The notes: generated from the sequence alone by a model not told the origin. A stretch of 64,000 nt of DNA from Catajapyx aquilonaris (GCA_000934665.2 JYFJ02009209.1:62001-126000); one strand, 5' to 3'; numbered from the stretch's first letter, positions 13,986 through 64,000 are shown. Made by a program: numbers and translations.

Positions 13986-15617
13986 ATGGCGAGAAAGAAT
14001 CCAACCCATCCTCCGCCTCCGCTTCGAAGGTCGAGTCGAACCCATAAGAGGACCCAGGGGCCGCCCCAGGGCGAACCCGGAAAGGTCAGGAAGGGCCAGG
14101 CCTTCCCCCAGCCCCAGGTGGTACTGGAGAAGCTCTCTCCAGTAAGTTTAACATATTATAGAGAAAAAAAAGGGGGTTTGACCTTGTGGCCCAGAATATT
14201 ATGCAATGTTTTGGGTGGGAACCAGATGAAAAAGGTTGTAATGAAGTTGTGCCAATTTTCCAGGAGGTGTTGAGCAAACATGGTCAAGGGCCGTCGACGT
14301 CGGCTGGTACGTCGCATGAACGGAAGAGAAAGCGGGCGGGGAAGCAAGCGACGGCTCCGAAGCGGGCCAGGGTGGCACCTCCGCCTGAACCGGTGAGTTT
14401 CCGATCCTCCAGATGGTTCTAGCTGAATCCTACATGTTCCGCCTGTTTTCCAGGATCAGGGAGCTGGATTTCACAGCCTTCCGTATGAGATGAAGCTGTA
14501 CCTGTTCTCCAAGTTCTTCACCAATGATGTCATGTCCAGTGTTCCGTTAGTGAACCATCAGTGGCGTGATTTGACACGTGCGCCGTATGTGTGGAAGAAT
14601 CTGTGCTTCGAAGGGAGCAAGATATCCACGAAGCAGATTTGCAGTAGGGTTCCTATGATCGCTGTTAAGACATTGGTTTTGAAGAAGCGGGTCGATATGA
14701 ACCGAGTACTGAGCAGGATTATAAAGCGGTGCTCGCAGTTGGAGGCTCTCGAAATCAGCCGTTGCCGCGGGTTCGTCGAGAGCTTCTTGGACAACCTGGC
14801 AAAGTGTAAAAAGCTGAAGCGGCTGACTGTCAACCGAACGTGTTTGGTCGGTGTGAATGTGTTGATAAAGCTGTCTAAGTTGCGTTTGCAGAGTTTGGTC
14901 CTCAATGGTGCTGTGCTGGATTATCCGACACCCCAGGCATATATTCCCGAGTCCGGATTTGCCCAACTGACCGAACTGACGCTGACCAAGATGCGGTGGC
15001 TTACGGATCTGAATGTCCAAAATTTGTTGTCCAAACTGCCTCAGTTGACCAGCCTAACACTGGAGGGGTACAATCGTCTCAACGAATCCAGTTACGTCGC
15101 TTTGGGTAATTGCACTCGGCTCAGGAAGTTGGAACTGCATAACGCAAACAGGATGGCCAACTCGGGCTTCACTGAGGGTCTGACCCGTTTGATTCACCTG
15201 CAGGAACTCCGAATTGATTCTGCTGTTGCAGTGGAAGCTAAGGTCATGCAGGATTACTTCAAGTCGGGAGCTGCTAAAGAGATGCGGGTCCTGAACCTCT
15301 CAGGTTGCTGCAATGTGGACGATGGTTGCATTGCGGCCATTGCGGAGAGATGCCCTAAACTTACACGTCTGACTCTTGTAAGCTGCTGGAAAGTGACAGA
15401 TCAGGGCCTGAAGGCATTGGCCGAAGCTCACTTGGAACTCACCCACCTGAACCTGCGACGATGTTGGAAGGTGACTGACAAAGGAATCGAGCAAGTTGTG
15501 ACTGCAATCAAAAAGTTGTCGCATCTCAATACCATCGGGATAGCAGGGGTGACGAGCAAGAGCTCCAACTTCATTAAGCTGCACCGCCCGTACTTGAATT
15601 TTTTCCGGGTGGAATAG
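13986..15617 (+). CDS. F-box/leucine-rich repeat protein (3 exons)
   Basis: Exons at about 13986-14141, 14264-14392 and 14454-15617. F-box FHSLPYEMKLYLFSKF...VPLVNHQWRDLTRAPYVW. Cys-containing LRRs LNLSGCCNVDD, LTLVSCWKVTDQGL, LNLRRCWKVTDKGI. Basic NLS-like N-terminus. Confidence 0.87.
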
Positions 15618-18344: not shown

Positions 18345-25303
<6,959 letters not shown>

Positions 25304-26589: not shown

Positions 26590-43538
<16,949 letters not shown>

Positions 43539-44118: not shown

Positions 44119-45626
44119 ATGGTGTTAACGAGGTTTGACATAGTTTACGACCGTTCTGTGTCCGTCTTCTTCCCTGGAGAGACGGTGAGCGGTAAGGTGA
44201 TTGCTGTCCTGGACGCCCCCAAGTCAACCACCGGTAAGTGCACTGCTATAGTAACGTTGCAATGGGTACATGTTGCCATATACTGCAGGGATACGTCTGC
44301 GGCTGAAGGGCATCGGTACCGTGTTCTGGCAGGTAGTGAAAGACGAAATGGTGGACTCGAACGACAGGGACGTACCGGAGGTCATCGACTACTACGCCGA
44401 GGAGACATACTGTTCTGAGGAAACGTGGCTGTACGGCGGGCCGGGTACGTACCGCGGTACATAAGGACCAGAGAGATAAAGTAACGCTGGTTTTTTTTTC
44501 AGATGGAAAAACCGTGACGCTTACACCAGGAGAGCACACGTACGAGTTCCATATGAGGCTTCCGGCTGTGCTTCCATCGTCGTTCGAAGGGTCGTACGGC
44601 AGCGTGCGGTACACCCTGACCGCCACCATCGCCAGATCCTGGCGGTTCGACCACAACATCAGAAGAGCGCTGACAGTCAACGCCATTGTTGACCTCAACA
44701 ATGATGCAGAAGCCAGGGTATGACTGTCATGCATGAGTTGGTTCCGTACAATTAATAACTCCACCAAAAAAGATAGCGCCACACAACGAGAACACGAAGA
44801 CGTTCGGATTCTGCTGCTGCCAATCTGGACCACTCAGCATGAAGTTCCATCTGGACAAAGGAGGGTACGTGCCGGGACAAGAAGTTCTAGTCACTGGTAC
44901 TGTCAACAACGGAAGCGACAAGGTCATCAAGAAGGTCACGGCCAGGCTGCATCAGGTCTGTTTCACACGGGGCATAATTGAGCCCCGACTGATGAAGATG
45001 ACTGTTGCAGGTCATAAAATACATCACCATAAAAGGTACGAAGCTGGAGCAGCGTACCCTGTCCCACGTGGAAAGAGAGGCTGTCCCGCCTGGAGGTGAA
45101 CAGACCTGGTCAAATCAGGTGGTCCACCTGCCTCCTATTCCCCCAACAAATCTTGGCTCCGGATGCAACATCATGAATGTCACATACGAACTACAGGTGC
45201 GTACAGAGTTTATCTAAATATTAAATATGAAAAAAATATTAATTTTATATTGTTGTATATAGCTCGACGCCAGCCCGTCAGGCATGGGGTTTGACCTGCT
45301 GGTCACGTTGCCCCTACTAATAGGCAACATTATGCTGAAGCAAGGGGTGTGGCATCCGCCCCCGGGCGGATACGCCCCGGGGCCGACAGTCCCTTTTCCA
45401 ACGCAAGATTATCCTGACCTTCGTAAGCGTATACCGTTTGACAATTGCGCTTCAGCACTCTTGCAAGGTTTTTTTTACAATTACAATTTATGCATTTCCA
45501 GCATCGCCGAGCTATTCTCAGTGCACGTTCGGTCCGAAGAGCATATGTGAAAAGGACGAGAACGAACACTTCGGTGGAGACAAAGAGTACGCGCCGCTCT
45601 ATCCGGTGTTTTCAACCTCACCTTAA
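44119..45626 (+). CDS. Alpha-arrestin (arrestin domain-containing) A1
   Basis: VFFPGETVSG, GEHTYEF..LPAVLPSSFEGSYGSVRY, FGFCCCQSGPL, GGYVPGQ, PPIPPT, LPLLIGN; tail LPSPSY...APLYPVF*. Confidence 0.9.
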
Positions 45627-45741
45627 CATTGTTGCAATAAATATTGTTCATTTGTATACCCATGAATAATAAAGGAAGTTGTTCCTTACTGAATAATAAT
45701 TAAAGGCACGGTTTTATTGCATTGTTTCTACGCGCGTCTTA

Positions 45742-47219
45742 TTACACCATGGCCAATGTAGGGTACATGGGTGTGTACTCCTTGTCGCCTCCGAGGTACT
45801 CAGAGTCACCTTCTTCCCTGATATTTCGAGCACCGAACATGCACTTGGTGTAGTGCAAAGGAGCTGTGAACAAAAGATGCAACGTTACAACAAAGGAAAC
45901 AGACAATAATTATTGACTTACGGAGGTTTGGATGCATGCTGACCGGATGTGTAGGTGCTGATGGCTCTTGAAATGGAGGAACGCTGTCTTGTATCGGTAT
46001 GTTTCCAATGAGAATAGGCATCTTGGATTTCAGGTCAATTGCAAATCCTGATGGAGTCGCGTCAATCTGTGGAAAAAGCTGCAACATGTATTTTTTCTCT
46101 TTTTAATGTTTCGGACAAACGTACCTCCAGCTCGTAAAAGACGCATATGATGCTGCAGCCTCTTCCAAGGTTGGTTGGAGGAATGGCAGGGACAGGCAGT
46201 GGCCAGTTTGACCACACTTGTTCCTGTCCTGGTCTGACGTCTTCAGATCTGCCAGTCTCTGACACTGTCCGAACCTCTCTGTTTGTACCGGTATGCGTTT
46301 GGTACTGGATACACTAAAAAGTACATCAAAAATGTATCGAGAGAGAGAAAAAAATAGGCTGGCATATATGCATTACCTGGTGCAACTTCGCAACAACTCT
46401 ACTGAGATGTTTTCGGCTATGATTGTTGACCACACCGCTGATCAGTATGGTCTCTCCAGGTACGAACCCTCCTTTGTTCAAACTGAACTTGATCGAAAGG
46501 GGACCAGACTTGCAGCACATGCAACCGAACACTTTGCTGTTCTCGCAGCTCGGCACCAACTGAAAGAAGAAAGAACATGGTAAATGTTCAAAAATGGTCA
46601 GTGAACGACAATGACGTACCAGTGCTTGAGGATTAATGTTGAGATCCACTATTGAGTTGATGGTAAATCCCACTTTGACATCATGGTCGAACCGCCATGA
46701 TCTGACTATCTTGGCACCCGCAATGTACCGGACATACCCGTAAATGCCTTCGAAGGAAGACGGAAGCACCTGAGGCAGCTGGAAGGAGTACGGGTACCGG
46801 TGTTCTCCAGCAGGTATGGTCAGTTTGGCACCTGCGAGTTTGGGCAAAAATGCAGTTAGTTTAATTGAGCAACCGGGTCAAAATGGTGCGTACCTGAGTC
46901 ATGTATGAGACAACATTCGAGTGTGAAGTAGTGTTCGGATGCACTGTGGTGGTGGTGATTCTGATAGGTATGGCTGCCCATACGTCGGTTCCTCTCTCTA
47001 GTTGTCCAGGCCACGTAACCACTGCCCTTCAATTGTATCCACACACCTACAGTAAGTACACTGTGTAAGTGCATGTTACGGGTCCATATTAGACAAAAAT
47101 GTACCGGTAGTTTGTTTGGGACTGTCCACTTCAACCAAGACATGACCTGTGATCACTTCTCCTGGGAAGTAAACGGCCACTGGTCGGTCAAACTCTATAG
47201 AAAATTTCTTCAGGCCCAT
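45742..47219 (-). CDS. Alpha-arrestin A2
   Basis: MGLKKFSIEFDRPVAVYFPGEVITG, LPSSFEGIYGYVRY, FGCMCCKSGPL, GGFVPGE; tail LPPLHY...TPMYPTLAMV*. Confidence 0.9.
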
Positions 47220-47913
47220 TGTTGAATCCCGACACTTCTCTGCAACAATGGAAATTGGCGTTATATAGTCAGTCGGACAACTATTGCGCCGTGAGGTCAA
47301 GGTCAACCAGTATATTTGTCAGTTTTCCAAGTGCTGGCAGCTATAATAGTTTTCCGATGTTTGGAGGACTATAGCGATATACCCAACGTCTGACCTACTT
47401 CATGGCCATCACACGCGTCTAAATTTAGATTCGCACGCAAAAAATTAAGTACTGCAAAATTCCGTGTTTTTTTTTGCTTGTAAAATTAATATGAATAATT
47501 ACAGACGTTAGGCAATTTATTCTATTATTGCAGTGGGTAAGGTGAACATACCCAAGCGACTCTGCCTGATAGCAACCAGATTGCAAACACTAGGCAACGA
47601 CTATAAAAATAGGATCGTAAACCCCTATAAAATTGGCGCAAAAAAACTCACTTGCTAATCCTGAGGAGGTCACTTCTTAACAGCAACACAATATCATGCA
47701 CTTGAGAATTTTGCATCAGTGTTGTCAGTCCTGTGTACGTACTTAAGAGTGTGGCCTTGAGTGGCAGAGGGCGTCGCTTGTATTTTTTTTTGCACAACTA
47801 CATATGAGTTTGCGGGCTTCAGAAGACCTCTAGCGAGAAGATGCAGAACCATTTTTGTTCATATTCGCACGTGAAGGTTTGAAACATATGTTTGGATATA
47901 TTTTTATTTGCTT

Positions 47914-49330
47914 TTATTGAAACATGTCGTATCCGTTATGCAACTTGTGTCCGTTCACTTCCGCAACCCTGGGTCCCGATGGCTGCATCCCAATATTGCC
48001 TATGACCACCGGAAGGACCAGCCTAAAATCTGAGGATCCCGTAGCAGTTGGAGAGGCGTCGAACTGCAGCGGAAATTTGCACAAAAAATAAAATTATTTG
48101 CAATCTAAAACTCTTGTAGTGACCGCCCGCACTGACCTCAAGTTCGTAGTAGACGTTGATTATGTTGCATCCGATACCCAGGTTGGTCGGAGGCACGTCC
48201 GGCACGTACATGGGCACGTCTGGCCACACCTGGTCCTGACCCGGGTTGACCTGACCTTTACCCGTCTCGACTAGTGTCCTCACTTCCAGTTTAGTCTTGG
48301 ATTGCGCCTGGTACCAAACGCACTGAAACGCAACAATTATTCTGTACCATCTGCCGTACGTATATAGATTGAAGAGACTGACCTGATACAACTTGGCCAC
48401 GACCTTCTTGATGACCTTGTTGCTTTGGTTGTCGATCACAGCATGTATGAAAATGTTCTCTCCTGGCACGAACCCTCCCCGATTCAGATTGACCTTGACC
48501 GATATGTGTCCAGAGGTGCACCAAACGCATCCAGTGGTCTTGGTCACTTCGTTCTGGGGAGCCAACTGCAAGGTCGTCAGCATTGTCTTTGTGGATGGAA
48601 CAATGTACGTGAACACAACTCACCCGAGCCTGCCCGTTGATGTTGAGGTCAACAATGGAGTGTACAGTGAACGGTTCCTTGCAGTCGTGGTTGTGCCTCC
48701 AGGTCCGTACTATCATTGCGTTTGCGGTGTACCTGACGTACCCGTGGGTACCCTCGAATGACGACGGTAGTATGGGAGGAAGGGCGAAGGTGAAAGGGTA
48801 GTAGTGAGTGCCCGAAGGTATCACAAACTTGCCTCCGACACCTGCAAAGAAATTATCGTCCAAAAAAATATCCGCAGTAACGACACTCAGAAACGTACCA
48901 AACCCTCCAAACAGACAGTTTTCGTAATGAAAGTAAGTCTCCTGCGCCGAGTAATGCCTGGTATGACTTTTTCCAGCATGACTAGATTTCTTGCTCAGAT
49001 GCTCTTCAGTCCAAGCCACGTGACCAGTTCCCTTCAGCTGAATCCAAACGCCTGAAATTATTTCAAATTATACTGTACAGTACAACAAAAATTGTGCACA
49101 GCATACCTACATGAACTTGGTGCAATGTTGCCAATACTTGTCAAGCAGGAACTACAGTTATAATTGTACAACCCCCTTAGGGAAAGATTGGTCCTTGAAA
49201 GAATTAGGTACGCACCGTTTGTCTCTTCCGGACTGCTGACCACAACCACCACGTGCCCTGTGACCATCTCTCCTGGCAGAAAGACGGCCGAGGTCTGATC
49301 GAACTTGATCGCGAACTTCACCAATCCCAT
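47914..49330 (-). CDS. Alpha-arrestin A3 (no PY tail)
   Basis: MGLVKFAIKFDQTSAVFLPGEMVTG, LPSSFEGTHGYVRY, GCVWCTSG, GGFVPGE; ends LPVVIGNIGMQ...NGYDMFQ*. Confidence 0.88.
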
Positions 49331-49813
49331 GCTAATCAAACCAGAACTAAATTAAATAACCAGCAGCTAATTAGCACAACTTACATTGATTAGAGTCGAA
49401 CCATTCCGGCGGTGAGGGCCAACAGTGTTGTTGTTATGACCTGTTTGTTCTGCTGTTGTGGACTCAACCAAATGCTAGAGGGAGACATAGGTGCAGACTA
49501 AGTCACACTACGCCTTTTTTTCAAGGCTGATTGCGAATTGAGCTGGGAGGGGAAGGGGAGAAAAGAAGGGCAGGTTTTTGCCCATGCTGACCTTGGAGGA
49601 AGGCAAAGAAAGGCGTAATTTTCCCACCGGTTGTCAACGGGTGTCCACCTCAATCTGGAATGTGCCCCCGTGCATATGTGTAGCAAAAAAAAAAAAAAAA
49701 AAAATCAATGCCAATTCTTTTGCCAATTTCTTGCACGAAGTTCAAATTTTGTTAGAGAGTGTATATTGATGTAAATATAATTGGGCAGCATATGTTACAC
49801 CTGACGCAAACTA

Positions 49814-51060
49814 TTAATTGCTGTCTACTTTCGGCGGTTCAGGAGCCGGCTGTTGTCCAAACACATGACACAAAGGAACCAACTCTTTTCTTCCCCGGAC
49901 ATGATCACCGTCACTTTCTTCTCGTATGTTCCTCTGTCCGACCTTACCCTGGGCGTAAGTCGGCGGGGCTGGATATTAATTGTGCAGAAAATTAGGATGA
50001 TTAACAAGCGGGAGGCGTAATTAACCTCCTGAGACCCGGAGTACAGTATACTGTACCTTTGTGGTTTTTACGCGTTTTAGTTAGTCAGAAAGGTACAGTA
50101 TACTGTACCAGGGGTCTCAGGAGGTTAAGACATGACTTACCTTGGTATTGCTGACCTGAAATCGGTGGTGCAGTCGGAGGAGGTGGCTGTAAAGGTGCAT
50201 TATAAGGGACGTAAGGTGCCGGAACAGGGACGTAGCCAGGTGTATGGACAGGGGAGTAGCCAGATTCAGGTGCAGGCTGTTGCTGTGGTACCACCATAAA
50301 TGGTACGTTGCCAATAATGACCGGAAGATTCAACTTCAGGTCGAGGGCTGCACCTGACGGAACTGCTACGATCTGTCATCGAGACACACTTTGTACTACA
50401 TCCAGCCTAACAATTGCCGGGATTTGTCGCACTTACCTCGAGGTCATAGAACACGTGGATGATGCCGGTAGACTGTATCCCCAGGTTAGTCGGTGGGATT
50501 GGAGGGACACGCAGGGTCACTCGATTGGGACTCTGTAGGTCCGACCCGGCCTCTATCGGATTTTGCAACTGTCTTAGCCTCACTCTTGGTTCCGTCGCGG
50601 GCTATGTATCGGATATTCTGTGTATATAGGACACACCGAATATACATGAGATCACTTTAACTCATCCGGATTAATCAGTGTGTTTACCTGTTCCAGCTTT
50701 GCTTCGACACGAGCTATTTCGCGGTTACTCTGGTTCTGAACTACTCCTGTGATCAGGATGCTCTCTCCAGGAGCGTACCCTCCTTTGTCCAGGCCGAACT
50801 GGATGGACAGAGGTGCGGACTCGCAACAGCAGCAACCAAAAGTCTTATCGGTCTCACTATGAGGCGCCAACTAATAAGAAATGGACAGTGGAAAATCTGT
50901 TTTTTACCATGATTTCCAACTGAAACCGGTATACTGTCTGGACTTTTCTGACTGTTATTATGACAATGGATTTACCCGAGCTTGAGGATTGTAGTTGAGG
51001 TCAGAAATGGCGTTGACGGTGAAGAGCTTCTCTTGGTTGTGGTCGGAGAGCCAGGAGCGT
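49814..51060 (-). pseudogene. Alpha-arrestin A4: 5'-truncated and frameshifted
   Basis: Starts abruptly mid-exon (RSWLSDHNQEKLFTVNAISDLN) with no N-terminal exons. An ~8-nt deletion near 50525 (the QVWDRV segment of paralogs) gives a premature TAA. A MITE sits in the last intron. Confidence 0.85.
50021..50128. mobile_element. piggyBac-type MITE (100 bp) with TTAA target-site duplication
   Basis: TTAA(50021-50024) CCTCCTGAGACCC...GGGTCTCAGGAGG TTAA(50125-50128). TIRs are 36 bp with 3 mismatches. The element is absent from the homologous A6 intron. Confidence 0.88.
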
Positions 51061-51165
51061 AATTATCATGACTTACGGATGCCTTTGGTATTGTTGACCC
51101 GGAAATGGTGGAGCCATAGGCGGAGGAGGGGCAGGGGGTAGACAAGGGGCGTATCCAGCGGCGTA

Positions 51166-52540
51166 CTATTGCTGTGACATTGCCATTATTGGTACGTTAC
51201 CAATAATGACCGGGAGGTTCATCTTCAGGTGGGAAGCTATTAGATCATTAGACCTGATTGCTCTGATCTGTCGAGACACACCGAGTTAAGCTGTGTTCAC
51301 ACATATAGGGTTACACGTACCTCGAGGTCATAGGTGAAGTTGATGATCCTGCATGATATCCCCAAGGTGGTTGGAGGGATTGCTGGAGGGACAGGCAGGG
51401 GCACACGATCCCAGACTTGCTCTTCTGTAGCTTTGATTGGTCCTTTTTCGGTTTTTGCCAATGTCCACTCCTCAGTCTTGGTTTCATCACTACAGCATTG
51501 GTCTGGGACTCGGTACCGGAGACGCTGACATACGGAGGTATCGTATGAGGTCACTTTAACTCAACAGGATAAAAATATGAGGCCATTACCTGATTCAGCT
51601 TTACTCTGACCCGAAATATTTCGCGGTTACTCTCGTTCTGAACCACTCCGCTGATCAGGATGTTCTCTCCAGGTACGTACCCTCCTTTGTCCAGGCTGAA
51701 CCTGATGGACAGAGGTCTGGACTGGCAGCAGCACCAACCAAAAGTCTTTTTGTTCTCACAATGAGGAGCCAACTATACAGTAATAAGAAATGATGAATGT
51801 CCAGCCAGCAGCAATGAAGAAAGCATTTTTGCAATAATTGTTAATCAGTTGGGCTACACTTCACTTGAAGTCAGAGAGGAACTGAACGAGTAGCCCTCCT
51901 TTCTGGACTATTCTGACTACGCTATTATCACAATGGGTTTTACCCGGGCTATCGGATCGGCGTTGAGGTCAACAAGAGCGTTGACGGTGATGTTCCGCTT
52001 GACGTGGTGGTCCAAAAGAAAGCACCGGACAATCCAGGCTTTGGCATTGTACCGGATGTAACCTCTGGAGCCTTCGAACGAAGACGGAATCCCCGGAGGA
52101 AGGACGAAGGAGAACTGGTACTGATGCTCTCCTGGAGGTATGGTGTGCCTTTCGTCCTGGCTACCCATCAGCCAAGTGTTCATGGAGCAGTAAGTCTCAT
52201 CCGCAGAGTAGTGCACTGTGATAGTTTTTATTATTATCGCAATCTTCGAGGCTTCTTTAGCCCACCCGCCCCCAAAATTAGCGGAGGGTAAACTTACCCT
52301 TTCCGGTGGACCAGTGGACGTGACCATATCCTTCCAACCGGAATTGCACACCTACGGGGTGTCATATAATCATGCTTATCGATTTGCACTCCTTGATCAG
52401 GAAACAGCGAAGAATTTTGACTCACCGCAGGCATCCTTTGGACTATCGACCCTGACGATGACCCTTCCAGTGACCATTTCTCCGGGGAAGAAAACGGGTA
52501 CTTGGCGGTCAAACTCGATCGCGAATCTGGTCAAAACCAT
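51166..52540 (-). CDS. Alpha-arrestin A5 (extra intron; premature stop before the Pro-rich tail)
   Basis: MVLTRFAIEFDRQVPVFFPGEMVTG, IPSSFEGSRGYIRY, FGWCCCQSRPL. The frame requires splicing of 52297-52216. Ends LPVIIGNVPIMAMSQQ* (TAG at 51168-51166). Confidence 0.75.
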
Positions 52541-52876
52541 CGCATTACCTGACATGAAAGTATAATTAAAGGAAAAAGCAAAATGTTGTGTTCAACAGGT
52601 GGAAACCCTATTACGAACATACATATTGTAGCAATGTGAGGAGGGTTGCCAGGAGAACAGTGTTGGAAGGCAACATACTAAGCAACTGTCGAATGATATA
52701 TTAAGGAAAAAAGTTCTCAGTGGACAATAATTTACCTTCAGTGGTGCAAGCTGAAGAACGCCCAGTAAATCAGAATTTCTGCAGTTCTTACGGTAATTTA
52801 TTTATTCAAATTCAACATTGATGGAGACAGATGGATTCGTGCCTAATTGCAACATATTTCACCGGATAGCAAACAT

Positions 52877-54482
52877 TTAATTAATAGCTCCCTTTGGTGG
52901 TGCCGGAGCCGGCTGTTGAAACACAGGGTACAAAGGAGCGAACTCTTGGTTTCCCCGGACATGTTCACCGTCGCCTTCTTCACGTATGTTCCTCTGCCCG
53001 AACATGCACTCGGCGTAACTCGGCGGGGCTGTGCAGAAAAATTGCGATTAGCATGATTAGCATCGAGAGGCATTATTAGACATGACTTACGGAGGTCTTG
53101 GTATTGTTGACCTGGAAATGGAGGAGCAGTCGCAGGAGCGGCTGCTGGAGCCTGTAAATGGACAGGGGCGTAGCCAGATGGTTGTGCAGGGGGGTAGCCA
53201 GAGCTAGGGGCAGGGGGGTAGCCATGTGCTTGGGCAGGGGCGTAGCTAGTTGCAGGGACAGGAGCATACTGTTGTTGCGGTACGGCCATTATTGGTATGT
53301 TGCCAATAATGACAGGAAGTGTCAGCTTCAGGTCAAAGGCTATACCTGAAGGAGTTGCGTCGATCTGTGGAGACACACCTATAGTTAAGTTGATTCCACA
53401 CTGAGGCTTTGGTTACGTGTATACCTCCAGGTCGTAGGTCACGCTGATGATGCTGCATAATATCCCCAAGTTACTTGGAGGGATCGGAGGGACACGCAGA
53501 GCCACGTGTTCCCAAACTTGTTCTTCTGTAGCTTTGACCAGCCCTCTCTCGGTTTGTGCCACTGTCCTCTCCTCAGTCTTGGTACCGTTACGAGCTTGGT
53601 ACCGAATACGCTGTCGGGGCATACGCAGGTCACTACAAATCGATCTAGATTAATCAGTGTCATTACCTGATTCAGCTTTGCTTTGACCCTCACTATTTCG
53701 CGGTCACTCTCGTTCTGAACCAATCCGCTGATCAGGATATTTTCACCCGGGACGAACCCTCCTTTGTCCAGACCGAACTTGATGGACAGAGGTCTGGACT
53801 CGCAGCAGCAGCAACCAAAAGTCTTCATGTTCTCACAATGAGGAGCCAACTAATAACAAACAGTGGAGATGACATTTTGCACAGCATTGCTGCACTTATC
53901 AAACGGACTTACCCGAGCTTGCGGATTGGCGTTGAGGTCAGCAATGGCGTTGACAGTGAGTGCCTGCTTGACGTGGTGGTCGAATCGCCAGGACCGGACA
54001 ATACTGGCCGTAGCAGTGTACCGGACATACCCATGTGAGCCTTCGAACGAAGAAGGAAGCACCGAAGGAAGGACGAAGGAGAACGGGTACTGATGTTCTC
54101 CAGGAGGAATGGTGTACCTTCCGCCCTGGTTGCCCATCACCCATGTTTCCAGTGAGCAGTACGTTTCATCCGCCGTGAAATGCTCCGTATGAGTGTGGTG
54201 ATGGTCACGACGACCGTGATCGTGATGGCGATCGTGATGGCGTTCGTGACGCTGACGTGTTTCGGTCCAGTGCACGCGACCAGATCCTTCCAACCGGAAT
54301 CGCACACCTATACAGGATCGTGTTTAATTGATCGCTACTTCTTGATCAGGCAACAAGATTGACTCACCGCAGGCATCCTTAGGCCTATCCACGCTGACGA
54401 TGACCCTTCCAGTGACCATTTCTCCAGGGAAGAAAACGGTCACTTGGCGGTCATACACGACCGTGAATCTGGTCAGACCCAT
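52877..54482 (-). CDS. Alpha-arrestin A6 (His-rich loop, intact PPSY tail)
   Basis: MGLTRFTVVYDRQVTVFFPGEMVTG, RQRHERHHDRHHDHGRRDHHHTHTEH, LPSSFEGSHGYVRY, FGCCCCES, GYPPA-type repeats, DLPPPSYAECMFG...APLYPVF. Confidence 0.92.
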
Positions 54483-55521
54483 TGCCAGCACCTGAAGTGA
54501 AAAACTCCTGTAAATGTCACCCACTTATCATAGGCGATAAGAACGCGATAACCGGTTCCTCTAACATCATTTACAGCACCCTCGCACGCCCAACCAAGTT
54601 TCAATGCCACAGGTTTCCTGGTAAAGCCATGCACTCTTCAAGGTCCCCAGTTCGCGGGGGAAAACCAAGGGGGGGAAATGAGGATAGGTTTTGAATATTG
54701 CTCACTCCAGCAACCTATTAGGCACCAATCCCAACTGGGTTTATTCAGGCTGCTAGGGTGAACAATCACATTCAAATGAAGCGCGTGACCTTGGCTGGTG
54801 CACAATCCTGAGAATAATAGCAAAGCTGCCAGAGTGAACAACAGTCGCATTTCCGATGATATATTCGTAATTATGGGCAACAGCACACATATTGCAATCA
54901 TTTAAATTATGAGACTATAGTTACCGTACCTGGGAATAATTCTCGTGTGACAGCGATTCCACCGAGTCGGCTGCTGGGTATCCCGATTGCCATTGAGCTC
55001 TCGGTCTTAATAACACTGACTGTTGCGTGCGATTAGATAACGGTATCGTGTGATTCACTGAGAAGCTAGCCATAGGCTGGATGTGTACGTACGTATAGTG
55101 AAACGTAACATCCGCCGTTTGCACATGACTCGGGATTATGGCAAAAAAGTGACGACTCATTATCCGGTGTTCAGTTTCGAGTGGCTCGTGTTGGATGACT
55201 GTGTCAGCATCTCCCAATATTCGCCAATGATGCTATATAAAATAAAAGCACAATCATCTGAGTAACACTCTACCAAGTAATAATTATCCTCTCATATAAT
55301 GTATCAAAATACACATGTACCGGTATACAGAATGCCTCAACATTTTTATTGAATAAAAATCATTGAAATGGGGAGAGATAGATTTTCTTTGAGTATGCCT
55401 ATGTGCAGCAAGTACAACAATTAATTATTATTAGTTTCATGTTTAGGGTGATGGATCTAGCCACTTCCTTAGGAGTGTCCAAACGAGGTCCGTTACTAAA
55501 ATTGTGTTCGTCAGTCAGTCG

Positions 55522-56744
55522 TCAGTCGAAGTTACCAATGATGAGCGGGAAAGTCACCATCAAGTGGTAACCTGCACCTGGTGGAGTTGCGTCGATCTGT
55601 CGATACAAAAGTTGTTGAATTCAGCACAACTCCCCGTGTGACTCTACATAACGAGTGTACTCACCTCCAATTCATATGCCACCTTTACAATGCTCTGGTG
55701 TATCCCAAGGTGTGACGGAGGCACGACCGGTACATCCAGAAGCACGTCGTTCCAAACTTGCTGGCATTTAGCTGGAACCATCCCTCTATGGATGCGAACC
55801 AAGGTTTTCTCTTCTAACTTGACACCGTTCAGGGCTTTGTATCGTACACACTGTATACATACGCCCAAATAAAAAGGTCATGCACAAGGGGGGGTCGGAG
55901 CAGCTAATTACGTACCTGCTTAAACCTTGCTTTGACCTTCTTTATTGGTCGTCTGGTGTCGTTCTGGACCGTCCCGTTGATGCAGATGCTGTCTCCTGGC
56001 ACGTACCCACTTCTGTTGATTCTGAACTTCATGGACACTGCCTTTGTTTTCCAGCAGCAGATTCCGAACTCTTTTGCGTTCTCCCTGTCCACGAACCCCT
56101 ACAAATTGTCATATCCGTGAAATGTACAAGAAAAACACTAAGGATCATCCATTTACCGCAGATTGCAGATAATATGAATGCTTGACAATCGCCTCGACTC
56201 TGAATGGATGCATGACGTGGCTGTCGGACTGATTCGACGGTCGCACGATGCTGGCCGTAGACATGTACCGGACATACCCATGCGACCCTTCGAACGACGA
56301 TGGAAGTACCTGAGGGAGTTTGAATGAGAAACGGTACGCTCCATGTCCTTCCGGCAACGTGACCTGTCCGCCTTCGTTTCCCAAAAGCCATTTTTCCATC
56401 GCTAAATAATGTTCCTCCCCCGAGAACACCTCATCTTGGGAATCCTCCTCACAAATGTCACTTTTGGGGTACGGAATAATCTGATTGATACTGGTGATGG
56501 GCACGGTGATTTTGGGCATCATGGGTTGCGTCCATTCGACTCGAGCTTTTCCTTGAATCCGAATTCGCACACCTGCTGGGGTCATCATGATTATAATATA
56601 CATAACTGTCCAAAAAAAAAGTAACTCACCGCAAGCTTCCTCAGGACTGTCGAGGGAGACGATGACCTCGCCTTTGATCCAATCATCAGGATAAAACTCT
56701 TTTCCTTCCCTATCGAACAAGATTTTGAAACTCAACAGACCCAT
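55522..56744 (-). CDS. Alpha-arrestin A7 (no tail)
   Basis: MGLLSFKILFDREGKEFYPDDWIKG, LPSSFEGSHGYVRY, FGICCWK, GYVPGD; ends FPLIIGNFD*. Confidence 0.88.
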
Positions 56745-57148
56745 TCAAAGTCAACCATCACACCAGCCAATTGTTAATAAAAATATGAATGATTAGACCA
56801 CATAGACGCCTATCTCCAGGTAACAGCACATTCGCAGTCACTGCAGGATAACTCCCCCCAAAAAAATAAAGCCAAGGGAGGCGCCTCCAGTTTATTACAG
56901 GAGACTGACAGCTCCAATAAAATTTTTTGCCAAAATCCAGTTGTTGAGAGTGAACCTTGCAACAATCGGACAGAAGTATATAACAGAAGCCAAGATGTCC
57001 CAATATATTTCATCTACTACATCTGAGCCAGTTGCTTGTCTCCATCCCAATATTCTACGGATTTTTCTGTCGGACTGAACATGATGTAGGATGGTTGGCC
57101 TGGAAATGTACGAAATTATTTTGTTTATTTATTTACTATTGAATATTA

Positions 57149-58552
57149 TCACAAACACGCGGATGTGTCCAACCCACCTGAGTGAGGTGCTGGGTCCTGA
57201 TGACCTCCTGGTTCAAATAGTGCTGGGTCAGTGGCCTGTACAGATGGGGAATGCGGTTCGGACGCTATACACGGTGGGGTCAAAGGTCGTCTGCCAGCTG
57301 CCGAGTCATCATTGAGACGTTCGGTGCCTACGAGGACAGGAATCTGTAGCTCGGCTTTATCTTCGAAGCCGTCAGGTGTGGCCTGAATCTGTTCAGAAAA
57401 AAATAAAGTTACTCAAGAAATTACTGTCCGTAGTTATTAACAGTGTAAATTACCTGCAGCTCGTATCTGACTCCGATAATGCTTTCGGGTATGCCCAGAT
57501 CGGTCGGAGGAAGCGGAGGAACACGTATGGCCACGTTGCTCCAGACCTGTTCGCTTCTAGCTTCAATCCGACCTCTCTCCCCTTGATACACGGTCCTCTG
57601 GGTCTTCATCGTCGTGTTGTTCCCAGCTCGGTACCGTAAAAACTACAACCGTTCAACTGTGTGGTACACATTGCCTATAGATATACTAACCTGTACAAGC
57701 ATCATTGTTATCCGATGAATTACAATGTCGCTCCTGTTATGAACCACCCCGTTGATCAGTATGTTCTCTCCAGGCACGTACCCACCTTTGTTCAATCGCA
57801 GGTTGAAGAGGAGTGCTTCAGAGCTGCACCAGCACCATCCCAACTCGGCCATTTCGTCGAAGTGAGGCACCAGCTGAGCATACACGATTCATGTCAACTT
57901 ATTGGACTCGTATACTGTATGTATAAATTACCTTGGCTTCCACATACGTGTTGAGGTCGACCGTGGCGTTGACCGTGAATGGCTTGTCGGCAGTCAGGGC
58001 CTTCGGGTCATTCCGCAAGGATCGGACCAGTATCGCCTTGGCCGTGTACCGAACGTATCCGTACGCGCCTTCGAACGAGGACGGCAAAGCGACAGGCAAC
58101 GTGATCGCAAAAGGGTAGCAGTGGTCAGCAGGCGTTTCCGTGAAGGTCATCGTTCCGGGAAAGAACTGTACTCCCCGCATTATCCTGTACTTGGCTCCTA
58201 GTGTACGCACAGTGAGATGACGAATCAGGTGCACAATTATTGCCCCGCTTAATTTACCTGGACTGCCTATTATCCAGTCTTCGATGTAGCAGAACATTTC
58301 GTCTTGACTGTGCTTCTCCTCCTTAGTGTCGGTCCACTCCACGTGTCCTGTTCCTTTCAATTGGATTTGAATACCTGCGAAGTATAGTTTCAAGTTTGGG
58401 TAATGATGGCACCTTCTGTTGACTATGAACTTACCACAAACTTCGTCCCCATATTTGTCGACTCCAAGTATGACTCTTCCTCGCACCTCTTTCCCAGGTG
58501 AGAATGTGGCCACAGGTCGGTCGTACTCTATCCTGAATTTGGTCACGCCCAT
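57149..58552 (-). CDS. Alpha-arrestin A8
   Basis: MGVTKFRIEYDRPVATFSPGKEVRG, LPSSFEGAYGYVRY, LGWCWCSS, GGYVPGE, IPVLVGT. Tail has no PPxY; the 3' end is uncertain. Confidence 0.85.
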
Positions 58553-58660
58553 TGCCGCGTATGTGTTTAAAAAAAAAAGTATCCGCACTATATGACAGAT
58601 TCTCACAAGAAATTTTGAAGTACGAACAAAAGAAAGTGTGTTGCCAGGCAAAAAGACCCG

Positions 58661-60392
58661 TCAATCGTCAAGTGGCGCAACAAAGAGTGGACTCCTTGGT
58701 CGCTGTCTACGTTCCTGAACCATCGAAACAAGATCGCGTCTGGAAATTTCGGAACTAGCCAACATCAGCTCGTCCCTGGCTTCGCGAAGGCAGTCGGAGT
58801 AACTTGGATGAGCTGGAAATAATTTAAGAAAAAAAAATGGCCGCGTCACCGTTGCAACAATGAGTGGACATGATTGTTATCTACGTACCCTGCTGCTGCA
58901 GCTGTTGGAGGTGATGCAGCAGCGAAGCAACTGAGCGTCTGAATGTTTCTACGGGTGTCTCTCTCAGTCCTTCCTCGCTCTCGGAGTCACTTGGAGTAGC
59001 TGCGGAAACGAAGAAGACAATGACGTTTAACAAACACATGCTGCGTGATTGGGAAGTGTGTATACGCATATTACTCTCAGGGCGCTTCTTCTGTTTCCTG
59101 CTGGATGTTGTGGAGTGACCGGTTGTAATAGACGGGACTGTGGCAGAATGGACAGAAGCTGTGGCAGGATTCAGCGGAGTGATGTTCCGGGCCTCTCTCA
59201 GTGGGATGGTGCCAATGATGACAGGAAGACGGGCGATTAATCTGGTCCACCTGTAGGCAGGCTTCGCCTTAATCTATACTCAAAAAAAGATCCGAAAATT
59301 AGTATAAGAAATGTCTGTTACATTTTTTTTAAAACCTTCAGCTGGTATCTGACTCCGATGATGCCTCCGGACATCCCGAGATCGGTCGGAGGAACAGGAG
59401 GGACAAGGAGGGCCACGTCTGTCCAAATCTGCTCACTTCGAGGTTCAATCCATCCTATGTCTTCCTCTATGAGAGTCTTGCGCTCTTCCACCGACTCCTT
59501 GGACCCGAATTTCTGGTTGTACATAATAACCTAAAAACACGACAACTGCATGACACCATTATTAAGCAACGTTGTCCAACTAACCTGCTGTAGAGACACG
59601 ATGACTCGTTGTATCTCTCTGTTGCTCCGGTTCTTGGCTATTCCGCTGAGCATGATCGTTTCTCCTGGCACGTAACCTCCTTTGCTCAAGCGCATGTTTA
59701 CCAATAGGGGACCAAAATTACACCAATCAAGCAGCTTTAATTCAAAACATTCTGGCGCCAGCTGAAAAGTGTTGGTCACATGCTGTTTCATCGACTAAAA
59801 AATACACACACGAATTTTGGCATATCAGTGTTACCCTGGCTTCCACGTTGGTGTTGAGGTCACATTTGGCCTCGACCTTGAAGGACTTCTCTGCCGTATT
59901 TTCTGGGTTCGACAAACAGAAGATTGTGGCTTTGGCAGTGTATCGAACGTGTCCATACGGACCTTGGTACGACGAAGGAAGCACCGACGGTAACACGATC
60001 GCAAACGGATATGTTATTTCACCTGATGGTATTGCACCTGAAAGACGTTTTATTTACATTCAATTTGTGTGAGGCACCTTTTTTATCAATATTACCTTGA
60101 ACCTCCAACCATGTTTCGATATTGCAATACACTTCGTCATTCCTGCACCTTTTCTTGATGCCGAACTTTGAGTATGACCTCTCCACTTGTCCGGATCCTC
60201 TAAGAAGCAATTGCAAGCCTGAAATAATGAGATCAGATTCAGATATTTCTCGAACACTTGTATTGCGTTTAACTTACCGCTCACTTCCTTGGTGCTGTCG
60301 ACGCTCAACACGACTTTTCCGCTGATTTCTTCACCCGGGTAGAACACTGCCCCGGGGCGGTCAAACTCGACGGAGAATTCTTCATTATCCAT
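58661..60392 (-). CDS. Alpha-arrestin A9 (two homologous terminal exons)
   Basis: MDNEEFSVEFDRPGAVFYPGEEISG, LPSSYQGPYGHVRY, GGYVPGE, LPVIIGTIPL; tail exons TTPSDSES... and AHPSYSDC... Confidence 0.82.
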
Positions 60393-60792
60393 GTCAGGAC
60401 ACAATCTTGTGCCCATGTCCTCAGTAAAACGATTTGTGGGAATCCTTACGCAATCCTCTTCGTAAAAAAAAACAAGAGGGTCGGAATTTCGAATGTCTCA
60501 CCAGCTACTCCAAAATGTAAACAAAGTGTAGCCAAAGCTATTGCTTCTATGACCTTAGCTCACTGAATATTAGACATTTTCTCCTGTGCCATACGATTAT
60601 TTCATCCTTATCATGCTGACATTACAGTGGAATTGCTCTAAAGTGTATCAGCAGCTTAGTCGTGTATAACTTACCACAAGCTTCGTTACGTACATGGTCG
60701 AAGGTAATGTGTGCACTCTGACAGATTCACTTATGGTATTAAAAAAAAGACGTAAAACCAAGTTTGGTGTACTTATTATTTTGCTATGTACA

Positions 60793-62290
60793 TTACTGCT
60801 GTAGCAACAGCTCCTGATGCAGCGAAGCAATAGTTCGTCTGAATGTTGAGTACGTTGACTCCCTCATTCCCATAGTGCTCTCGGAGTAACTTGGCGGAGC
60901 TGGAAATGAAAACGCCAACAATATAGAGTGCTTGGGAAGTTGCTCTTTGTGTCTCTTTAATCTTGCAAGGGACACTTACAGTCTGATAGCCAGGCCTCAC
61001 TCCTGATGGGTGCTGTGGAGTCACCGGCTGGAGCAGGTGCTGGTTGGTCAGAAGGGACAGAAGCTGTGACAGGAGTCAGCTGACTGGTGGTGTTCCTGGC
61101 TTCTCTCAACGGGATGGTGCCAATGGTGATAGGAAGACAGGCAATTAATTTGGTAAACCTGTAGGCAGGCTTCACCTTAATCTATACTCAGAAGATAAGG
61201 TAATTATTAAGTGTGGATCCTGCTGGTACATTTGTTGCATTTTCACCTTCAGCTGGTATCTGACTCCGATGATGCCTCCGGACATCCCAAGATCGGTGGG
61301 AGGAACAGGAGGGACAAGGAGGGCCACGTTTGTCCAAATCTGCTCACTTCGAGGTTCAATCCGGCCTAGGTCTTCCTGCAAGAGAGTCTTTCGCTCCTCT
61401 ATGGCTGTCTTGACTCCGGATTTCTGGTTGTACCGGAAAACCTGATGGGGACAAATAGGTGACACTTTGCACGTTGTTCAACTAACCTGCTGCAGAGTCA
61501 CTGTGACTCGCTGTATCGCTTTGAAGCTGCTGTTCCTGGCTATTCCGCTGAGCTTGATCATTTCTCCTGGCACGTAACCCCCTTTGTTCAACCGCATGTT
61601 CACCAATAGGGGTCCGAAACAACAACAATCAAGAAGCATTAATTCCAGACATTCTGGCGCCAGCTGAAAGTGTCACCTGCTGCTTCTGTGATCAAACTAG
61701 ATGATAGGAATATCAGTATATAGTTATACCCTGGCTTCCACGTTGGTGTTGAGGTCACATTTGGCCTCGACCTTGAATGCCCTCTCTGCGATACGATCGG
61801 GATTCGACAAACAGAAGATGGTGGCTTTGGCAGTGTATCGAATGTGTCCTTGCCAACCTTCGAACGACGAAGGTAGCATCGACGGTAATGTGATTGCAAA
61901 CGGATACGTTGTTATTTCATCTGATGGTATCGTGTGAACCTGATAGTCTGCAAGAGGGTTTACTTTATACTCAACTTTCATATATATTTTACTCATTACC
62001 TTCAACCTTCAACCAGGTTTCGACATTGCAATACACTTCGTCCCTCGTGCACTTGTGCTCGGTCCCGAACTTTGTGTTGGACCACTCGACTTGTCCGGAT
62101 CCTCTCAGCAGCAATTGCAAACCTATGTACAATAATAATGCTCAGGTGTATTTCTGGAGGCTGCGTAGTACTTACCGCTCACGTTCTTAGTCCTGTGTAC
62201 GCTAACCATAATTTTTCCACTGACTATTTCTCCGGGGAAGTACATTCCCCCGGGGCTGTCAAACTCGATGGAGAACCTCTCATAAACCAT
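60793..62290 (-). CDS. Alpha-arrestin A10 (PPSY retained)
   Basis: MVYERFSIEFDSPGGMYFPGEIVSG, LPSSFEGWQGHIRY, LDCCCFGP, LPITIGTIPL; last exon SPPSYSES...LLLQQ*. Confidence 0.88.
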
Positions 62291-62545
62291 GTCAGGAACC
62301 ACCTCTGTTCCTAAGTAGTCCAGGAAAATATTCATAAAGGATAACGGGGGGAATGCCTGTGTGCGCAAGAAGCAATTTAGAATTTATCAGTATAGCTACA
62401 CCGAGGTGTAAACAAAGTATAGCCAATCATGCTGATGCGCACCGGATCTTCATGTGACACATATTCGCGGATTTAGGAGCTGGAAATGAAAACGACAACA
62501 ATGCCAAACAAATTTTTTTTTAATATGATTTTTTTTTGTGTACGA

Positions 62546-62642
62546 GCGCAACCGAGTGCGCACACACACTCGCTCAAGTCCATCATGGGATAGTGTATAG
62601 GAAACCATTTGCGCAGAGTGTATGCTGCGCACTCGGTTGCGC
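62546..62642. repeat. Inverted repeat (17-bp perfect arms, imperfect inward extension)
   Basis: GCGCAACCGAGTGCGCA (62546-62562) and TGCGCACTCGGTTGCGC (62626-62642). Confidence 0.85.
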
Positions 62643-62707
62643 ATCCCGCGATTTTATAGTCTCCCGGGGGGACGACTAGCGCTTTCTTTTCGCCGTCTAT
62701 TAAACTC

Positions 62708-62780
62708 GTCCCTGTGGCGCAGTGGATAGCGCGTTGGACTTCTAATCCAAAGGTCCCGGGTTCGAATCCCGGTAGGGATG
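62708..62780 (+). tRNA. tRNA-Arg, anticodon TCT, intronless
   Basis: GTCCCTG/TAGGGAT acceptor stem, A box TGGCGCAGTGG, anticodon arm TTGGA-CTTCTAA-TCCAA, T arm CCGGG-TTCGAAT-CCCGG, and a downstream T-run terminator. Confidence 0.96.
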
Positions 62781-62973
62781 CGTCCATTTTTCTTTTTAAA
62801 CGTCTCATAATAATTATTCGTAACGGAGGGATTGGCTACACTTTGCTTATGGAACTTTGGAGTGACTGTTCTGGGGAAATTCTGTTGCTTTTTCCGCAGA
62901 GGATTGCGCGTAAGGATTCCTGTTCTTATATACGTTTGCATTGAGTAAGCATTGCGTATGGTTCGTTCCTGAC

Positions 62974-64000
62974 ATGATGGATTATAAGAGGTTCTCGATC
63001 GAGTTTGATCGCCCCGGGGCAGTGTTCTACCCGGGACAAGTAGTCAGTGGAAAGATTATGCTGAGCGTCAAGAGAACTAAGAAAGTGGACGGTAAGTTAA
63101 ATATACGATTATCGCCTGCAGATATACATGAACTAGATTATTGCAGGCTTGCTATTGCTGTTAAAAGGATCCGGACAAGTCGTGTGGTATAGCAAAAAGT
63201 TTGGGACCAAGCATCAGATGTGCATGAAGGACGAAGTGTATTGCAATATCGAAACCTGGTTGAAGGTTGCAGGTATATGTATAATGGTTGCCAGTGAGAA
63301 TGACGATCGAAATAATTTGAATAAATGAAACCTATTGCAGGTCAAGTGCACACATTACCATCAGGTGTAATAACAACATATCCGTTTGCGATCGTGTTAC
63401 CGTCAGTGCTTCCTTCGTCATTCGAAGGACAGCAAGGACGCGTTCGATACACGGCCAAGGCTACGATCTTCCGTTTGTCGAAGCCCGACCATACCACAGA
63501 AAAGGATTTCAATGTCGAGGCCAAATGTGACCTCAACACCAACGTGGAAGCTAGGGTAACTATAGCACTGATATATGCCACATTTTTCATTTATTTTTGG
63601 TGACCAACACTTTTCAGCTGGCTCCAGAATGTATGGAATTAAGGATGCTTGATTGTTGTTGGTTCGGCCCCCTATTGGTGAACATGCGGTTGAACAAAGG
63701 GGGTTACGTGCCAGGAGAAACGATCTTGCTCAGCGGAATAGCCAAGAACCGCAGCAACAAAGCGATACAACGAGTCACAGTGACTCTGCAGCAGGTTAGT
63801 TGGACAACGTTGCTAAATGGCAGCGGTGTCATGCACTTGTCGCGTTTTAGGTCATCCGGTACAACCAGAAATCCGGCGGCAAGGTGTCGTCAGAGAGACG
63901 CAAAACTCTCTTACAGAAAGACCTAGGCCGGATTGAACCTCGAAGTGAGCAGACTTGGACAGACGTGGCCCTCCTTGTCCCTCCTGTTCCTCAGACCGAT
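62974..64000 (+). CDS. Alpha-arrestin A11, inverted paralog of A9/A10; runs off the window
   Basis: MMDYKRFSIEFDRPGAVFYPGQVVSG, LPSSFEGQQGRVRY, LDCCWFGP, GGYVPGE, LLVPPVP; exons stay in frame to the edge. Confidence 0.9.

Follow-up and report, generated by a model that had tools for sequence, protein, structure and literature searches.

Repeated loss of the PPxY motif in a tandem array of alpha-arrestin genes from Catajapyx aquilonaris

Alpha-arrestins are the main adaptors that direct Nedd4-type ligases to membrane proteins for removal, and a PPxY motif (PY motif) in their tails serves as the docking site for these ligases. A 64,000-nucleotide stretch of DNA from Catajapyx aquilonaris (GCA_000934665.2, JYFJ02009209.1:62001-126000; hereafter the window) holds 11 tandem alpha-arrestin copies, A1 to A11, recognized through spliced models and a motif scan, with A11 cut off by the window end. 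Few of them carry a canonical PPxY, raising the question of how often the motif was lost and what the copies lacking it, here called PY-less, are doing. An earlier note on this DNA had proposed repeated independent loss, with PY-less copies possibly acting as decoys or shields beside PY-positive activators. Our analysis supports several independent losses, and we favour, with moderate confidence, a lineage-specific tandem expansion in which the PY-less copies are working adaptors, uncoupled or weakly coupled to WW-domain ligases.

Five recurring exon signatures were found in register 11 times in a motif scan of all six frames of the window, and the same scan detected no arrestin signature before 44 kb. 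Matches to Pfam Arrestin_N and Arrestin_C above curated cut-offs came from stop-to-stop open reading frames (ORFs) on the minus strand at 45.7-62.3 kb and on the plus strand at 44.1-45.6 and 63-64 kb. All 10 arrestin ORFs tested, from 8 copies, exceeded the Pfam cut-offs for Arrestin_N and/or Arrestin_C, with Arrestin_N above the gathering score in ORFs of A1, A2, A3, A5, A6, A7, A8 and A9, and Arrestin_C in those of A1, A2 and A3. Both arrestin lobes could be aligned in all 11 copies, which identifies the two-lobed alpha-arrestin fold throughout the array. The absence of PPxY does not exclude membership of this fold family, because known members such as ARRDC5 also lack it.

The gene model of A6 was read by hand in three frames, and our own protein-to-genome aligner, which handles phased introns, returned the identical model. 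The aligner was run on all copies with A6 and then A1 as the guide, and tails and doubtful boundaries were curated in three-frame prints. It permits only GT/GC donors and AG acceptors, so that the uniform GT-AG splice sites are partly so by construction; the printed sites look like ordinary consensus. The introns of this eukaryotic DNA are short (40-171 nt as modelled, mostly 45-90 nt). Spliced frames were uninterrupted in eight copies (A1, A2, A3, A6, A7, A8, A9 and A10), so that the claim of open arrestin folds across the array held cleanly for these eight and failed for A4 and A5. Double frameshifts reported by the aligner in the loop of A7 were an artefact, as the frame is open there by eye, and mini-exons placed after A3, A7 and A8 were dismissed by eye as spurious output. 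A 40-nt intron in A9 was dropped in favour of the homologous 58-nt intron.

The PY motif lies at the very start of the last coding exon, where a phase-1 intron interrupts the codon of its first residue. When that codon is counted in, the canonical motif is read in only three copies. A6 (52877..54482, minus strand; 6 exons, 434 aa), an intact gene and the slowest-evolving copy, has a tail exon (53028-52877) that reads PPPSY across the intron and continues into the full family tail module. The tail exon (60899-60793) of the intact gene A10 (60793..62290, minus; 7 exons, 378 aa) opens with SPPSY, after which comes a tail type that A10 shares with A9 and with no other copy. The third, A4 (49829..51062, minus), is a pseudogene whose tail exon (49968-49829) still reads APPTY. 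At the same site the intact gene A1 (44119..45626, plus; 7 exons, 379 aa; Arrestin_N and Arrestin_C) has a tail exon (45502-45626) starting PSPSY, the first core proline changed to serine and the family tail module, including APLYPVF, retained. In the intact gene A2 (45742..47219, minus; 7 exons, 372 aa; Pfam arrestin domains) the tail exon (45863-45742) starts PPLHY, the second core proline changed to leucine and the tail module otherwise conserved. A9 (58661..60392, minus; intact, 427 aa with a possible exon 7) carries PTPSD in exon 6 and AHPSY in this further possible in-phase exon.

Three copies end before the motif is reached. The intact gene A3 (47914..49330, minus; 6 exons, 334 aa) stops 26 residues past the closing IGN motif of the fold, with AATAAA 6 nt past the stop. 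A7 (55522..56744, minus; 5 exons, 324 aa), likewise intact and with the most divergent fold of the array, ends IIGNFD-stop, 2 residues past the IGN motif, with AATAAA 172 nt downstream. A5 (51166..52540, minus), a probable pseudogene, runs for 322 codons to a TAG in exon 5, nine codons past its IGN motif. The spliced models thus reproduced the variant motifs of A1, A2 and A9, the early ends of A3 and A7 and the TAG of A5 as first transcribed in the earlier note. The eight tail exons show six changes at the key P, P and Y of the motif. The first proline accounts for four of them (S, Q, T and H), and the second proline (L) and the tyrosine (D) for one each, both of these residues being retained in 7 of the 8. 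Together with two missing exons and a stop plus deletion, these bear out the statement that the lesions are all different.

Whole predicted proteins contain [LP]PxY in A6 and A10 only. At the sequence level, a C-terminal [LP]PxY is present in A6, A10 and the dead A4, and absent from A1, A2, A3, A5, A7, A8 and A9. On the gene strand of the array, all three frames yielded the tail exons of A10, A6 and A4 and two out-of-frame chance sites, and no hidden PPxY exon was found on that strand within the array, so that both scans agree with the original claim that canonical PPxY is confined to A6, A10 and the A4 pseudogene, and an unseen PPxY exon, which could have undone it, has no candidate there. 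A search by tblastn with all eight tail peptides matched only the eight known tail exons and nothing after A3, A5 or A7, where no tail-exon relic rose above background noise at E <= 5; in particular, none was seen in the 695 nt between A3 and A2 or in the 1040 nt between A7 and A6. Pfam searches were also negative for two intergenic ORFs downstream of A7 (54921-55232, 54638-54901) and for three further ORFs. A PPRY at 45788-45799 on the plus strand is antisense within the A2 tail exon and was dismissed as chance.

Two copies have candidate exons that bear on their motif state. The tail of A8 (57017..58552, minus; intact) had been called PY-less, which is correct as regards PPxY, but a probable tail exon starting QPSY had been overlooked. 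A phase-1 GT donor (GTGGGT) at 57177 is followed 78 nt later by an acceptor in the TTTCCAG context also found at the PY exons of A1, A9 and A10, and the exon so defined (57099-57017, minus) has 26 codons. It showed weak similarity to the other tails, with no significant tblastn match, and we grade it as probable. The protein would be 379 aa with this exon and 361 aa without it; unspliced, it ends 9 residues later, and neither reading contains PPxY. An AATAAA within the last intron of A8 is uninformative on whether the intron is spliced, because 8 of the 54 modelled introns hold such a signal. In A9, exon 6 (58999-58889, minus), which starts PTPSD, is orthologous to the A10 PY exon (75% identity over 95 nt), whereas the first 27 nt and acceptor of the possible exon 7 (58812-58661, minus), which starts AHPSY, are 92.6% identical to the start of that same A10 exon. 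The closer match of exon 7 than of the true orthologue points to a partial duplication of the PY exon start. The Q in A8 and the H in exon 7 of A9 may both trace back to one ancestral base change.

Whether these states are losses depends on what the ancestor carried. A full HMMER search with the A6 exon-2 ORF returned 2044 proteins at E <= 0.001, the best named matches being insect 'arrestin domain-containing protein 17-like' proteins and uncharacterised Caenorhabditis arrestin-domain proteins (E 1e-20 to 1e-41, 40-50% identity). Word-indexed homologue searches with the same ORF (among longer proteins) and with the A8 exon-1/2 ORF (among near lengths) gave no matches. Among 70 homologues of 300-480 aa, a comparison set that includes some truncated database models, a common tail plan was evident, consisting of PPxY, C.FG, an acidic stretch and an xPxY-containing end motif. 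The tail module after PPxY occurs in 48 of the 70; it is complete in A6, present with all but the canonical PPxY in A1 and A2, and degenerate in A4. Both the name of the closest relatives and this module place the array with the ARRD-17-like proteins, although the tails of A8-A10 differ after the motif. Within their last 130 residues, 46/70 homologues have [LP]PxY, compared with 2/8 intact copies (Fisher p = 0.049); among homologues with the end module the count is 39/48, compared with 2/6 tail-bearing copies (p = 0.025). The module persists without a canonical PY motif in nine family members, several of which show a change at the first position of the motif (QPNY in P0044, EPSY in P0119 and SPYY in P0125). 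The family-wide tail module and the PPxY of 46/70 homologues support PPxY as the likely ancestral state. As a separate observation, in homologue P0103 '...YPDLRK...' gives way to unrelated residues at the end, just as reading through the phase-1 donor would produce here were the last intron left unspliced; some 'PY-less' family members in the databases are thus annotation errors.

The number of losses was assessed on a maximum-likelihood (ML) tree built from the fold only, with tails excluded (33 rows by 303 columns, including 22 outgroup homologues). The 11 window copies form one clade (support 100/99), separate from all 22 outgroup homologues. Within it A2 and A3 pair (87/54) and A1 is the next branch, with 98/89 for the nine copies other than A2 and A3. 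A6, A7 and the pair A5 and A4 (96/86) fall together with weak support (82/24), and A8 joins A11, A9 and A10 (100/99), the last three forming their own group (100/100) in which PY-positive A10 is nested beside PY-less A9. The end branch of A6 is 0.078, as against 0.15-1.08 for the other copies. A rare change agrees with the weak A4-A7 group: an extra phase-1 intron splitting exon 2 (for example 44444/44503 in A1 and 58258/58170 in A8) is present in A1-A3 and A8-A11 and missing from A5, A6 and A7, so that a single intron loss marks this subgroup. Since the outgroups show PPxY at this exact exon start, only losses were counted, giving six: in A2/A3, A1, A7, A5, A8 and A9. Several independent losses are supported, because the lesions differ and the affected copies sit on different branches of a well-supported tree.

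We then asked whether the folds that lost the motif are still constrained, using a codon model with one omega (dN/dS, the ratio of nonsynonymous to synonymous substitution rates) per branch on three-taxon stars, implemented in our own code. All pairwise dN/dS values that could be defined were below 1. Saturation of synonymous sites (dS > 1) spared only A5-A6 (dN 0.158, dS 0.347) and the comparisons among A9, A10 and A11 (dS about 0.3, omega 0.41-0.47), and for the unsaturated pairs Biopython NG86 and ML agree (A5-A6, 0.45; A9-A10, 0.47-0.52). Fold omega was 0.16 for A1 (p = 3e-10 against 1), 0.09 for A3 (p = 1e-8), 0.42-0.44 for A7 (p = 0.0025 and 7e-6), 0.23-0.26 for A8 (p = 3e-4 and 1e-12) and 0.24-0.35 for A2 (p = 4e-14, 3e-7, 0.044 and 0.17, depending on the triplet). 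In the young group, A9 gave 0.48 (p = 0.013), A10 0.48 (p = 0.03) and A11 0.51 (p = 0.054), and one omega fitted this triplet as well as three in an earlier codon alignment. Purifying selection on the PY-less intact folds A1, A2, A3, A7, A8 and A9 is therefore supported, with dN/dS of 0.09-0.48 and values below 1 in most tests, which answers the check that had been proposed for them.

Constraint also extends to tails. In the A1/A2/A6 tail exon beyond the four PY codons, omega = 1 was rejected over 32 codons (p about 1e-7), the estimate itself being saturated but far below 1; by contrast, the tail exons of A9 and A10 gave a dN/dS of 0.80 over 26 codons. Tajima tests showed A6 to be slower than A1, A7, A8, A9 and A10 (p from 6e-4 to 1e-10 with A2 as the outgroup and from 0.038 to 1e-7 with A3), while its difference from A5 was significant with one outgroup only. 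Fold identity to A6 is 46-58% for the older PY-less copies, and A9 and A10 are 74% identical to each other.

A4 and A5 behave differently, and one deletion damaged both. Beyond the TAG of A5, the old frame runs on through a proline-rich stretch to the usual GTAAGT donor, as comparison with A6 shows; this exon-5 tail remnant (51055..51165, minus) stays in frame to the donor at about 51076 and then meets the deletion junction. About 20 nt into intron 5 of A5, the sequence passes straight into the middle of A4 exon 2. Because intron 5 of A5 is joined directly to mid exon 2 of A4, this is a single deletion, which removed the A5 PY exon, the spacer, A4 exon 1 and most of A4 exon 2. A4 additionally has a frameshifting deletion in exon 4, and exon 2 of A5 requires an unusually short 43-nt intron (52297-52255), being frameshifted otherwise. 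In the A4/A5/A6 triplet, over 171 shared codons, omega was 0.15 for A6 (p = 2e-6), 1.07 for A5 since its split from A4 and 0.81 for A4, the last two not different from 1, whereas A5 over a deeper branch gave 0.46-0.47, so that both copies died recently. With both disabling lesions and a neutral substitution pattern, A4 and A5 are unprocessed pseudogenes, A5 being graded as probable, so that A5 drops out as a decoy, a role in which the earlier note had included it. Independently of this, intron 5 of A4 (50030-50130, minus) contains the palindromic 18-mer GGTACAGTATACTGTACC twice, about 60 nt apart and within inverted flanks, perhaps the trace of a small inverted-repeat insertion, to which the intron would owe its length of 163 nt.

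Taken together, the favoured reading is as follows. One 'arrestin domain-containing protein 17-like' alpha-arrestin gene would have expanded in tandem in a lineage-specific manner, with A6 staying near the ancestor and keeping a PPxY for Nedd4-type WW-domain ligases, the acidic stretch and the xPxY-containing end motif. Other copies would have evolved faster and A4 and A5 died through their shared deletion, in a process of birth and death around a conservative parental copy. In six intact copies canonical PPxY would have disappeared on at least five or six separate occasions, through point changes in some and through loss of the entire tail exon in others, which would cut the link to WW-domain ligases in A3 and A7 and weaken it in the xPSY variants of A1, A8 and A9. 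The PY-less copies would then act without a ligase, or with little of one, on cargo sets that have drifted from those of A6. Shielding against a PY-positive sibling may be one sub-case, for which the young pair A9 and A10 is the most plausible site. In A1 and A2 the tail module is constrained and only the PPxY core has changed, a pattern that points to altered ligase coupling in particular rather than general decay, and the strong divergence of the older folds, faster than A6, favours new specificities over mimicry for the same cargo.

Several points weigh against this reading. Unpolarised parsimony among the window copies needs just 3 state changes, and the figure of six assumes that PPxY was never regained at this exact site. 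The enrichment of PPxY lack over the family background is modest (p = 0.025-0.049 only). The models derive from genome sequence alone, so that the 3' ends, the extra exons of A8 and A9 and the 43-nt intron of A5 are predictions. Our codon-likelihood code was checked only against Biopython on pairs, and the deep comparisons are saturated (dS > 1, branch lengths up to 6), which makes those omega values rough. In the A2/A3/A6 triplet, the omega of the A2 terminal branch did not fall significantly below 1 (p = 0.17), and the recent copies are only moderately constrained, at about 0.45-0.5. With the saturated A8 as third taxon, A9 gave 0.35 (p = 0.15) and A10 0.91 (p = 0.93), a disagreement that leaves the young copies loosely resolved. 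Finally, PY-positive A10 evolves as fast as PY-less A9 in the Tajima tests, and faster evolution is therefore not tied to PY loss.

The alternative that survives best, though we consider it unlikely, is that the changes tuned affinity: the PSPSY, QPSY and AHPSY tails, with the second xPxY-type end motif, would bind WW domains more weakly or more selectively and make the array a graded series of adaptors. Since most changes hit the first proline, WW binding may indeed be weakened rather than abolished. The retention of tyrosine and of the second proline, each in 7/8 tail exons, beside four different single-base changes of the first proline fits such tuning, as do the strong constraint on the remainder of the A1 and A2 tail exon and the like first-position variants of P0044, P0119 and P0125; a study of yeast Rim8/Art9 describes binding by Rsp5 through a reduced PxY motif (PMC3439951). 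Against tuning as a general account, A3 and A7 are without any tail exon and A9 exon 6 has lost the tyrosine too. Moreover, the PY motifs of Nedd4-family WW domains are given as PPxY or LPxY in two sources (PMC8509885, PMC2824488), and in a fly and human interactome study no PPxY-less alpha-arrestin was enriched for WW-domain partners (PMC10945707).

A more far-reaching proposal, which we hold to be doubtful, is that the array forms a built-in antagonist system, in which PY-less paralogues maintained by selection would engage cargo, or partners that need no ligase, and thereby determine the level at which A6 and A10 trigger ubiquitin-dependent removal, with the first-proline mutants as graded weak binders. 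If true, a single scaffold would here carry a naturally arisen allelic series in its coupling to ligases.

Birth-and-death decay, under which the PY-less copies would be recent duplicates on their way to becoming pseudogenes, with frames still open for lack of time and not on account of function, appears improbable. It draws on the 2 of 10 scored copies that are demonstrably dead (A4 and A5), on relaxed constraint in the recent copies (omega about 0.45-0.5), on the dN/dS of 0.80 between the A9 and A10 tail exons, and on the copies being known from genome sequence. Yet omega = 1 was rejected for A1, A3, A7 and A8 in all of their triplets and for A2 and A9 in most, all eight frames and their splice sites are intact despite protein end branches of 0.15-1.08 substitutions per site, and the tails of A1 and A2 are conserved outside the motif. 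Least credible is the decoy or shield, in which PY-less copies would bind the cargo of a PY-positive sibling and block its ubiquitination: PY-less copies under selection do coexist with PY-positive ones, and the folds of A9 (PY-less) and A10 (PY-positive), 74% identical, could still share cargo, but the older PY-less folds share only 46-58% identity with A6 and evolve significantly faster, a divergence that may reflect changed rather than shared binding surfaces and speaks weakly against shared cargo for these copies, and PY status along A1-A10 is unpaired (-, -, -, + (dead), - (dead), +, -, -, -, +).

The arrangement of the array and its surroundings yielded further observations. A1 (plus) and A2 (minus) lie tail to tail, with stop codons 115 nt apart. 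A10 (minus) and A11 (plus; 62974..64000), a partial copy whose first 263 codons lie in the window and whose tail lies beyond it, face away from each other in a head-to-head arrangement, 684 nt separating their start codons (62290-62974), and may share a bidirectional promoter. In A6 exon 2 (54170-54260, minus), the variable loop of the arrestin N-lobe is His-rich, with about 14 H in the 32 residues between a conserved W and an ETY motif, and A2 has a short HHHH run in this loop near 46930-46960; the loops of the other copies are unrelated in sequence and differ in length. Adjoining the array, very long open frames at 34443-39821 (plus) encode dynein heavy chain motor domains (AAA_6, AAA_7, AAA_8 and the microtubule-binding stalk), in a region that probably spans about 30-44 kb, has 53-56% G+C and includes the single N of the window, at 39766. 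Upstream of the array lie ORFs for rhodopsin-family or Srw-type seven-transmembrane receptors at 1-969 and 8423-9391 (both minus), which look like a duplicated pair, an ORF with an F-box and leucine-rich repeats at 14427-15617 (plus), and an exon of an ABC-transporter ATPase at 22274-23050 (plus).

Among known systems, the insect 'arrestin domain-containing protein 17-like' and nematode ARRD-17/CNP-1-type proteins share the two-lobed fold and tail plan of the array; they differ in that 46/70 relatives carry PPxY, whereas most array copies do not, and the array is a clade of its own. A parallel is offered by the Drosophila family, including CG18744-CG18748, which we take to be neighbouring genes. 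According to the interactome study (PMC10945707), Drosophila likewise mixes PPxY-bearing and PPxY-less members (8 and 4 of its 12 alpha-arrestins, respectively), and WW-domain partners were enriched only for the PPxY-bearing ones. In the array, by contrast, the mixture arose within one young tandem clade that includes an ancestral-type copy, and the losses can be read at the nucleotide level. Human ARRDC5 resembles the PY-less copies in having no PY motif, and it functions; two reports describe its divergent sequence and testis-predominant expression (PMC3517545) and its V-ATPase partners (PMC10945707). It is unlike them in being a single old paralogue that lies outside any array and is not closely related. 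PY mutants may not be fully dominant-negative, according to PMC3517545. The reduced PxY contact of yeast Rim8/Art9 with its ligase, as described in PMC3439951, resembles the xPSY variants of A1, A8 and A9, which are known here from sequence; Rim8/Art9 is a fungal pH-pathway adaptor with no orthology to the array. A limited search of the open-access literature found no description of repeated PPxY loss within one tandem alpha-arrestin array.

In summary, the array is a new example of a known phenomenon, PPxY-less beside PPxY-bearing alpha-arrestins, and not a new mechanism. It provides a natural series on a common scaffold, with five point-variant motif forms in four genes, two clean tail deletions and a conserved reference copy, and this series is suited to asking how much weight each position of the motif carries and whether PY-less adaptors oppose their PY-positive kin or act apart from them.

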